Of a stretch of 64,000 nucleotides of DNA, positions 4,428 to 4,946 are shown one piece after another; positions within the stretch are counted from its first letter, which is position 1; every line of letters begins with the position of its first letter. Source of the DNA: Candidatus Udaeobacter sp. (lineage in GTDB: Bacteria > Patescibacteriota > Patescibacteriia > Magasanikbacterales > GWA2-37-8); NCBI GenBank assembly GCA_035473115.1, contig DATION010000005.1:86339-150338 (forward strand). The letters run 5' to 3'. The position numbers were made by a program, and so were the translations under genes. A model generated the notes under the pieces. The model worked only from the letters and a program-made list of their open reading frames with translations, had not been told where the DNA came from and did no database searches.

Positions 4428-4456
4428 TTGACAAACAGGCCAAAAAGGAGTATAAT
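4428..4456 (+). promoter_or_regulatory. Perfect consensus sigma70 promoter TTGACA-17-TATAAT whose -35 is embedded in the palindrome ggcctg...caggcc
   Basis: TTGACA at 4428-4433, a 17-nt spacer, TATAAT at 4451-4456. The 6-bp inverted repeat GGCCTG/CAGGCC brackets the -35. Confidence 0.6.
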
Positions 4457-4523
4457 TTTGTATTAGATTAATAGTTACCCACCCCAGATGGTTAGCCAAA
4501 ACGACCCCCTAGGGGAGGTAAAT

Positions 4524-4661
4524 ATGGATAAGGAGATGCGTCGCCTTTTGGCGACTGCACTTGTTGCTATGGCACTAGTGATGGGTATGGCCTTGAGCCA
4601 TTGTGGTGAGAGAAACTATAACCCACACGACCAACGACACGCTACCAAAGGAGGCCAATAA
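4524..4661 (+). CDS. Small (45 aa) secreted or lipoprotein-like peptide
   Basis: GGAGG SD at 4514-4518, 5 nt from the ATG. N-terminal signal-like MRRLLATALVAMALVMGMALSHC with a lipobox-like LSHC. Not in the ORF track because it is under 60 aa. GC-rich. Confidence 0.45.
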   Translation: MDKEMRRLLATALVAMALVMGMALSHCGERNYNPHDQRHATKGGQ

Positions 4662-4774
4662 TGATGAACACCGAGAAAATCGCCCGAGTCGATCGGAACC
4701 CCAACCCTTACAGTATCGCTGGAATAGGAGCGGTCCTGCTCCTGATCGGCATACTGCGCCTGATCGTTGGCTAG
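4661..4774 (+). CDS. Small (37 aa) single-TM peptide, translationally coupled to the upstream micro-ORF (TAATG overlap)
   Basis: GGAGG SD at 4650-4654. Sequence is MMNTEKIARVDRNPNPYSIAGIGAVLLLIGILRLIVG. Its ATG overlaps the stop of the preceding ORF. Confidence 0.45.
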   Translation: MMNTEKIARVDRNPNPYSIAGIGAVLLLIGILRLIVG

Positions 4775-4892
4775 CCTAGCGAACAAAATCGCTGGACTGG
4801 CGCAACAACAAACAGCTCTTTCCCGACCAGCATGCGTGGAAGCGCCCGCTCGACACTTCCACGAACACACAGCCCGCATACAGTTCGAGCCA

Positions 4893-4930
4893 AAACAAAA
4901 AACCCAGATTTATATCGGGGTTTTTTGTTT
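4893..4930. terminator. Bidirectional Rho-independent terminator between convergent genes
   Basis: aaaaaaccc-N12-gggtttttt hairpin flanked by A-run and T-run. Sits between the micro-ORF pair (+) and the 4947..6722 gene (-). Confidence 0.55.
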
Positions 4931-4946
4931 TTATTACCTAGAAAAA

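Follow-up and report, generated by a model that had tools for sequence, protein, structure and literature searches.

A predicted micro-peptide operon with structured untranslated regions in a narrow clade of Patescibacteria

The window analysed here, a stretch of 64,000 nucleotides (64 kb) of contig DATION010000005.1 from a metagenome-assembled genome (MAG), carries a compact transcription unit with two very short open reading frames (ORFs), W1 of 45 and W2 of 37 amino acids, between the gene for a P-type ATPase and a convergent gene for a protein of 591 aa. Judged by its sequence and its conservation, the unit is a genuine and hitherto unannotated micro-peptide operon with structured untranslated regions (UTRs) that occurs in a narrow Patescibacteria clade. 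Annotation systematically overlooks small membrane proteins, and to our knowledge almost nothing is known about those of the Candidate Phyla Radiation (CPR). The databases have no NCBI-sourced record at the locus, W2 is unrecorded, and W1 is represented by a mis-started 57-aa ORF from a Logan assembly alone; a Logan contig is 100% identical to the window over 12.7 kb. A literature search yielded no report of such operons in Patescibacteria, nor any of SERCA-type micropeptides in bacteria. The coordinates of the features are collected in Table 1.

The unit opens with a sigma70-type promoter in which TTGACA and TATAAT are 17 nt apart and all 12 positions agree with the consensus, as an earlier note made from the letters of this DNA had pointed out. 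No second perfect match with a 17-nt spacer is present in the window, and sites with that spacer and at most one mismatch number 5 against 0.59 expected. The other perfect promoter of the window, with a 16-nt spacer (24108-24081, minus strand), lies upstream of the 23S rRNA gene, and by consensus match the promoter of the micro-peptide unit is its equal in predicted strength. In related genomes, among which neutral sites are saturated, the promoter scores 11-12 of 12 with a conserved spacer in five of six lineages, while L003 has two perfect hexamers with a spacer of 15 nt. The palindrome around the -35 hexamer, to which the same note had drawn attention, is real, though found in the window only: alignment revealed it in none of six relatives, and it is probably incidental, lying at a deletion junction. 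The deletion (4402-4428) removed an AstE-like gene that is present in all unit-bearing relatives, where the full terminator hairpin of that gene, CCCCGnCTCnTAnnnAGAGCGGGGTTTTT, stands at the place now taken by a half-terminator relic. With the AstE-like gene lost, the ATPase gene has no terminator before the promoter of the unit, so that read-through into the unit is possible.

The leader, about 60 nt by the first estimate, measures about 60-65 nt between the promoter and W1. Both ORFs are preceded by a GGAGG Shine-Dalgarno (SD) sequence and are joined by TAATG, in which the W1 stop codon (4659-4661) overlaps the W2 start codon (4661-4663); this coupled arrangement had been described correctly. 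The 57-aa form of W1 chosen by the gene caller begins at the ATG at 4488, which has no SD sequence, and W2 has a second in-frame ATG at 4664. W1 consists of an N-terminal signal-anchor-like hydrophobic segment followed by a polar tail of 20 aa rich in His and Cys. The best 17-residue Kyte-Doolittle mean is 2.4-2.6 in both peptides. Four GGAGG-led ORFs of 20-60 aa occur in the window and only W1 and W2 among them resemble transmembrane (TM) peptides, and about 193 kb of related CPR DNA contained SD-led TM micro-ORFs in tandem only within the family of this unit; such rarity indicates that the arrangement of W1 and W2 is not a product of chance. Nor do the ORFs appear to be a by-product of structured RNA, since no excess of RNA folding is conserved in the coding block (in relatives z lies between -1.1 and +1.5).

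Table 1. Features of the micro-peptide unit and its upstream edge (positions of the window)
Feature	Position	Strand	Basis or detail
P2A-type (PMR1/SERCA-like) cation P-type ATPase	1684..4404	+	NCBIfam TIGR01522, 649 bits, below cut-off
Half-terminator relic of the deleted AstE-like gene, CCCCTACCAATTTTT	4405..4419	+	Alignment with L003, L006 and L007
Inverted repeat GGCCTG (4420-4425)-N10-CAGGCC (4436-4441) around the -35 hexamer	4420..4441		Sequence
Sigma70-type promoter	4428..4456	+	12/12; spacer AAnnGGCCAAAAAGGAG conserved
Leader hairpin, 3' arm holding SD1 (GGAGG, 4514-4518)	4474..4522	+	RNAalifold on five long leaders
W1, 45 aa, MDKEMRRLLATALVAMALVMGMALSHCGERNYNPHDQRHATKGGQ	4524..4661	+	SD GGAGG 4514-4518, optimal spacing
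W2, 37 aa, MMNTEKIARVDRNPNPYSIAGIGAVLLLIGILRLIVG	4661..4774	+	SD2 GGAGG 4650-4654; polar N-terminus, C-terminal TM segment
Proximal 3' UTR	4775..4834	+	GCTCTTTCCCGACCA common to the L003 3' UTR; shuffle test 1 of 300
3'-UTR hairpin P1, arms CGTGGAAGCG / CACTTCCACG, loop CCCGCTCGA	4835..4863	+	Kept in seven lineages; minimum-free-energy fold
Invariant loop GCUCGA (4848-4853) and complementary invariant UCGAGC (4885-4890)	4848..4890	+	All seven lineages
Bidirectional intrinsic terminator A6-CCCAGAT-TTAT-ATCGGGG-T6	4897..4926		Predicted fold; common to the unit and the convergent 591-aa gene

Relatives of the unit were collected via contigs encoding close homologues of the flanking genes and by a scan of metagenomes with the 3'-UTR pattern. 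The latter retrieved three new true members together with five chance matches in GC-rich coding DNA; the promoter, used as a search pattern, led only to unrelated strong promoters in viral contigs, and nhmmer, run on the window and the other fetched loci, brought up no additional copy of either the unit or the 3' element. There are seven distinct versions, namely those of the window, L003 (with L004 and L021), L006, L007, L017/L026, L019 and L020. All six relatives carry the unit directly after the terminator of an AstE/AspA-like gene, which is itself 3' of the ATPase gene, and each encodes two or three micro-ORFs of 25-50 aa with one hydrophobic segment apiece. The start signal of the first ORF is GGAGGTAA-N2-3-ATG in each version, the ORF junctions are stop/start overlaps (TAATG, ATGA, GTGA) or short gaps (TAA-N2-4-ATG), and the conserved 3' UTR and terminator are kept throughout. 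An apparent frameshift in the first ORF of L017 is due to one missing G, and the near-identical L026 is intact. These comparisons place the unit in a narrow, fast-evolving family within one Patescibacteria clade. Of the conservation in related genomes that the earlier note had in view, the coupled arrangement was recovered; no homologue of either peptide sequence was detectable.

Promoter, leader and 3' UTR are more conserved than the peptides encoded between them. A first ORF (ORF-a) is found in every lineage, ORF-b in four and ORF-Z, the last ORF of the relatives, in five. W1 is the positional homologue of ORF-a with an extension of 20 aa, the counterparts in the relatives stopping just past the TM segment; W2 has no more than a vague likeness to ORF-b or to the TM part of ORF-Z. 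ORF-Z has the C-terminus ...LPAGGxDVAP (tail examples are VYHVQYTSLPAGGTDVAP), and its tail YHVxYxxLPAGGxDVAP is the best conserved peptide segment of the family, with mostly synonymous changes. For ORF-Z the ratio of non-synonymous to synonymous substitution rates (dN/dS) ranges over 0.14-0.70; ORF-a and ORF-b, compared between L007 and L019 as the closest pair, have values of 0.60 and 0.34 respectively. Other pairs are saturated. By this measure the comparable peptides of the family, ORF-Z above all, are under purifying selection. In L019 only 16 codons of ORF-Z are left, and the window lacks it. A supposed remnant of it after W2 was rejected as unsupported by the shuffle test, in which only the UTR segment shared with L003 stands out.

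The conserved tail of ORF-Z would also suit an exported-peptide locus, in which W1 and ORF-Z would be Sec-type pro-peptides releasing a signal or antimicrobial peptide of about 20 aa and the other micro-ORFs would have helper or immunity functions. In both peptides a basic N-terminus leads into a hydrophobic core of 16-17 residues, followed by small residues at -3/-1 of a putative cleavage site (TIA, AVA and ALA; ALS in W1) and by some 20 aa of polar tail. We nevertheless regard this explanation as unlikely, given that the tail of W1 is unrelated to that of ORF-Z, that ORF-Z is dispensable, and that no receptor, exporter or processing gene consistently adjoins the unit in the loci compared.

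The transcript is predicted to be structured on both sides of the coding block. In the five lineages with long leaders a hairpin pairs GUUAYYY.CCC with the SD region of the first ORF; its 18 pairs are 91% paired and 5 of them are changed on both sides, values that shuffle controls attained in 11-21 of 500 runs. A structured leader that buries the SD sequence in five of seven lineages, with some covariation, is reminiscent of type I toxins, and the earlier note had thought of a toxin/antidote pair or a type I toxin. The unit might accordingly be a selfish or stress-related module whose membrane-depolarising peptides are silenced by the leader together with a trans-encoded or unrecognisable antitoxin small RNA (sRNA). 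The peptides are indeed hydrophobic, shorter than 60 aa and of the single-TM type, their turnover is fast, and the unit is patchy and accessory; moreover, a minus-strand hairpin with a short T run over SD1 (4519-4504) could terminate an antisense RNA. However, the opposite strand of the unit has no sigma70-like promoter matching at least 9 of 12 positions in any of the five lineages scanned (those of the window, L007, L020, L003 and L006), there are two or three coupled ORFs instead of one, and no match to a toxin or defence family was obtained. In L003 and L017/L026 the same strong promoter is followed by a short unstructured leader, which would be lethal if a toxin were left unrestrained. 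As far as these lineages show, the unit is not a cis-antisense type I toxin-antitoxin module, and the toxin reading as a whole is improbable.

In the 3' UTR, hairpin P1 comprises 11 pairs, 5 of which have both partners altered, with three flips found in the window lineage alone. Its covariation score was reached by none of 500 shuffles and slid controls fell to 26-38% paired, in a hand-fitted alignment of seven sequences. The loop of P1 contains GCUCGA, and its complement UCGAGC follows six bases ahead of the A run of the terminator. These 6 pairs are 100% complementary yet invariant, so covariation cannot test them. The geometry of an H-type pseudoknot fits (L1 of 2-3 nt, L2 of 0 and L3 of 2-21 nt), and as a nested hairpin the second pairing is isoenergetic with P1, which makes a switch equally possible; GCUCGA and UCGAGC may thus form either stem 2 of an H-type pseudoknot or an alternative hairpin. 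The bidirectional terminator that the earlier note had placed at the end of the unit is there: its stem (4903-4920) is lengthened by A and T runs, its position is conserved in all relatives and its stem sequences vary. An A.G mismatch in the stem had hidden the terminator from a simple scan.

With the fold of the whole unit at z = -5.8, function could be centred on the RNA, the UTR structures being selected as a 3'-UTR-derived sRNA or as a dual-function RNA such as RNAIII or SgrS and the ORFs being secondary and free to drift. That promoter, leader and 3' UTR outlast the ORFs in conservation, that compensatory changes have preserved P1 also in the lineage of the window, which lost ORF-Z, and that GCUCGA and UCGAGC are invariant would all fit. 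But the SD sequences, starts, coupling overlaps and hydrophobicity are conserved as well and ORF-Z is under purifying selection, no target is identifiable, and scans of the window, L007, L020, L003 and L006 found no promoter inside the unit from which a separate 3' sRNA could start. Rfam also gave no match: a gathering-score scan of the window with Rfam 15, with ARAGORN alongside, had nothing at the locus, and permissive scans of the locus and three relatives returned sub-threshold matches to terminator-bearing sRNAs only. We think a purely RNA-centred function distinctly improbable, although an RNA-level function of this kind would be compatible with a role of the peptides in the membrane.

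The base composition of the unit had led the earlier note to propose horizontal acquisition. GC content is 0.51 in the unit, 0.50 in W1 and 0.55 in W2 against 0.40 in the window, and GC at third codon positions (GC3) of the micro-ORFs is 0.47-0.76 in every lineage (up to 0.70 in the unit of the window) compared with 0.27-0.44 in normal genes. A recent import is contradicted, as the unit occupies the same locus in seven lineages with saturated synonymous sites and is GC3-rich in all of them; the high GC must have been maintained and not freshly imported. Codon bias linked to expression was likewise discarded as the cause, because L32 of the same genome has a GC3 of only 0.31. Elsewhere in the window, immediately downstream of the 5S rRNA gene, a stretch of high GC (about 0.55; 18748-20159, minus strand) is a composition anomaly like that of the unit, with its own 11/12 promoter (20159-20131), two minus-strand ORFs of 98 and 215 aa and an overlapping plus-strand ORF without Pfam match. 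A gene for a LuxR/GerE-type regulator (55204-55659, minus strand; GC 0.54, GC3 0.61) is another compositional outlier in this 40% GC genome.

The same note had combined foreign origin with a lipoprotein nature of W1, and an imported entericidin-type pair of small lipoproteins acting as toxin and antidote would have in its favour the two tandem tiny ORFs, the Cys that follows the hydrophobic segment of W1 and a GC content above that of the genome. The sequence MALSHC, read as a lipobox, is present. A lipobox at the end of a signal peptide follows the rule [LVI][ASTVI][GAS]C, with Gly, Ala or Ser at -1, and L-S-H-C breaks it by having His there; the Cys is moreover not conserved in the positional homologues of ORF-a. 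No Pfam or NCBIfam model for entericidins or lipoproteins matches W1 or W2, and the one weak match to entericidin B in the family belongs to ORF-b of L007 (E = 0.0099; 15.5 bits, with the cut-off at 94). Since the locus is also occupied in seven lineages with saturated dS, this explanation is extremely unlikely. What stands of the compact, highly expressed two-peptide module proposed at the outset is an autonomous, coupled unit that is probably highly expressed, as its promoter suggests; its characterisation as a toxin/antidote or lipoprotein pair falls away.

The neighbourhood of the unit is constant on one side only. ATPase and unit are linked in L003, L006, L007, L019, L020 and L026, and the upstream link to the ATPase and AstE-like genes is constant, while the downstream neighbour varies between a gene like that for the 591-aa protein, a SulP gene on the same strand and genes of complex I. 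Homologues of both flanking genes all belong to Patescibacteria (Moranii-, Komeili-, Uhr-, Lipton- and Collierbacteria and Paceibacterota). The NCBI protein label of the MAG is 'Candidatus Udaeobacter sp.' (Verrucomicrobiota), and this label is probably a taxonomic mis-assignment, the close homologues of the ATPase and of the 591-aa protein being all from Patescibacteria. The 591-aa gene, which is convergent and ends at 4947, has no Pfam family and about 37 homologues in Patescibacteria; distant homologues (48-60% identity) had no unit nearby, and a contig scan with this neighbour gave one relative, of 32% identity and without synteny. Among carriers of ATPase orthologues of 68-72% identity, L027, L029 and L031 are without the unit. 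L027 has the AstE-like gene and, in place of the unit, a tiny SD-led Lys-rich ORF (MAKKKKAKKKKRR, L027 8850-8925) followed by a strong terminator; L029 has the AstE-like gene and a gap of only 40 nt, and L031 is without the AstE-like gene. To judge from this distribution the unit is accessory within the clade.

The explanation towards which we lean, with moderate confidence, is that of a highly expressed operon for small membrane proteins with cis-regulatory RNA, whose peptides would serve a larger membrane protein as accessory or modulatory subunits. The mRNA, autonomous and polycistronic, would run from about 4463 to 4926, a length of about 470 nt. Opening of the leader hairpin would gate translation of the first ORF, and the downstream ORF would be translated by coupling, with ribosomes passed on from the first. 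The 3' hairpin, probably as an H-type pseudoknot formed via GCUCGA and UCGAGC, may together with the terminator shield the mRNA from 3' exonucleases or bind a factor. W1 would insert by its N-terminal hydrophobic segment, possibly be cleaved, and expose its 20-residue His- and Cys-rich tail outside the cell, and W2 would be tail-anchored with a cytoplasmic N-terminus.

As to that partner, the sole candidate singled out by the data is the adjacent P2A cation ATPase, to which the peptides might stand as KdpF, MgtS or sarcolipin stand to their pumps. We offer this assignment with considerable doubt, because many orthologous pumps occur without the unit. Still less likely is the most far-reaching version, in which the peptides would be bacterial counterparts of the regulins that tune the adjacent SERCA/PMR1-like Ca2+ pump of an ultra-small episymbiont, the output of the mRNA being set by a new 3'-UTR pseudoknot and an SD-masking leader.

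Several observations weigh against the membrane-protein operon as outlined. Neither W1 nor W2 has detectable homology with a peptide of any of the six relatives; W1 in its 57-aa form matched only itself among 5.8 billion protein clusters, W2 matched nothing among 1.84 billion representative proteins, and searches of Pfam, NCBIfam, PADLOC and PHROGs assigned neither to a family, returning only sub-threshold noise (DUF2970, CbtB, entericidin B, holin), of which DUF2970 was the Pfam match of W2. Coding constraint is therefore established for the family and not for these two sequences, and we infer their translation from signals, hydrophobicity and the conserved arrangement. The peptide set is fluid, with ORF-Z lost in the window and truncated in L019 and ORF-b missing from three lineages, which argues against an indispensable subunit. 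L003 and L017/L026 do without the SD-occluding hairpin, the P1 alignment was fitted by hand to seven sequences, and the invariance of GCUCGA/UCGAGC puts the second stem beyond the reach of covariation. The high GC3 of the micro-ORFs is not accounted for. Finally, the ATPase link may be mere synteny, considering the orthologues without the unit in L027, L029 and L031 and the AstE-like gene and terminator that usually intervene between ATPase and unit.

The locus nonetheless offers a concrete case in which an rRNA-grade promoter, two conserved RNA structures and fast-changing micro-peptides adjoin a SERCA-like pump. If the peptides modulate the pump, the regulin principle would extend to bacteria, and a 3' element that works as a pseudoknot would be a new RNA motif; the regulin-like system, if true in full, would be the first of its kind in prokaryotes and would bring with it a new structured RNA motif. 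Should neither the pump link nor the pseudoknot hold, the locus would still stand for a family of small membrane proteins confined to its lineage, of ordinary interest.

Some further features of the window and of one relative were recorded. The minus strand at 4947-12350 encodes the 591-aa protein, a 339-aa CsoSCA_cat-like protein, a protein with an MJ0043_C domain and ATP-citrate-lyase-like proteins, a carbon-metabolism cluster that is atypical for a CPR genome. An rRNA operon at 20378-24108 (minus strand) consists of 23S and 5S genes, with no 16S gene in the window, and the 23S match spans 3039 nt where the model has 2925 positions. At 31429-32502 (minus strand) a tandem pair of genes codes for type IV secretion system pilin domains (PF18895). 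A tRNA of 102 nt at 51355-51456 (minus strand) was matched by Rfam and not called by ARAGORN; the anticodon loop, TTTGTAA, points to a tRNA-Tyr(GTA) of class II whose variable arm is unusually long. In L013 (2500-3090, minus strand), between the genes for RNase III and a 573-aa protein, the tRNA 3' end CTTCCTGCCGAAGGCACTATT is duplicated and flanks a GC-rich insert, which looks like an integration scar.

Known systems share individual traits with the unit. Type I toxins (Hok, TisB, Ldr, Ibs, Fst, TxpA, BsrG, AapA1) have in common with it short hydrophobic peptides, a structured 5' UTR that occludes the SD sequence, a strongly structured 3' end and an accessory, patchy and fast-evolving nature; the unit differs in having two or three coupled ORFs, no antisense promoter that could be found and, in two lineages, no SD-occluding leader. 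The entericidins EcnA and EcnB likewise come from two adjacent genes, are about 40-48 aa long and have a hydrophobic segment at the N-terminus, but the unit has no canonical lipobox, no conserved Cys and no profile match for W1 or W2. Strong compact units with peptides of 20-45 aa in a row, each with its own SD sequence, are also known from PSM-alpha of Staphylococcus and from leaderless bacteriocins of the aureocin A70 and garvicin KS type. Those peptides are amphipathic, cationic and released, whereas those of the unit have TM cores of 17-23 residues with charged flanks and no adjoining exporter. ORF-Z and W1 are similar to the Sec-exported pro-peptides Phr, PapR and NprX of Gram-positive bacteria in their length of about 40-50 aa, their signal-like N-terminus and their conserved or polar C-terminal part; they differ in that no gene for an RRNPP-type receptor adjoins and cleavage is only putative. 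With RNAIII/hld, SgrS/SgrT, SR1/SR1P and 3'-UTR-derived sRNAs the unit shares a short structured transcript that encodes small peptides and contains conserved non-coding structures, though it matches no Rfam family.

The micropeptides of P-type ATPases (KdpF, MgtS, MgtR, phospholamban, sarcolipin, DWORF and the sarcolamban of Drosophila) have no sequence relation to the peptides of the unit, for which no Pfam or NCBIfam match at E <= 1 rose above noise. The unit also differs from them by its own promoter and terminator, by the AstE-like gene that usually lies between, and by the many orthologous ATPases that occur without it. The likeness is one of build and place: as in those systems, the peptides are of 25-50 aa with one TM helix and are encoded beside a P2A (PMR1/SERCA-like) ATPase, and just as Drosophila sarcolamban provides two peptides per transcript, several peptides are predicted to be encoded on one short transcript here.

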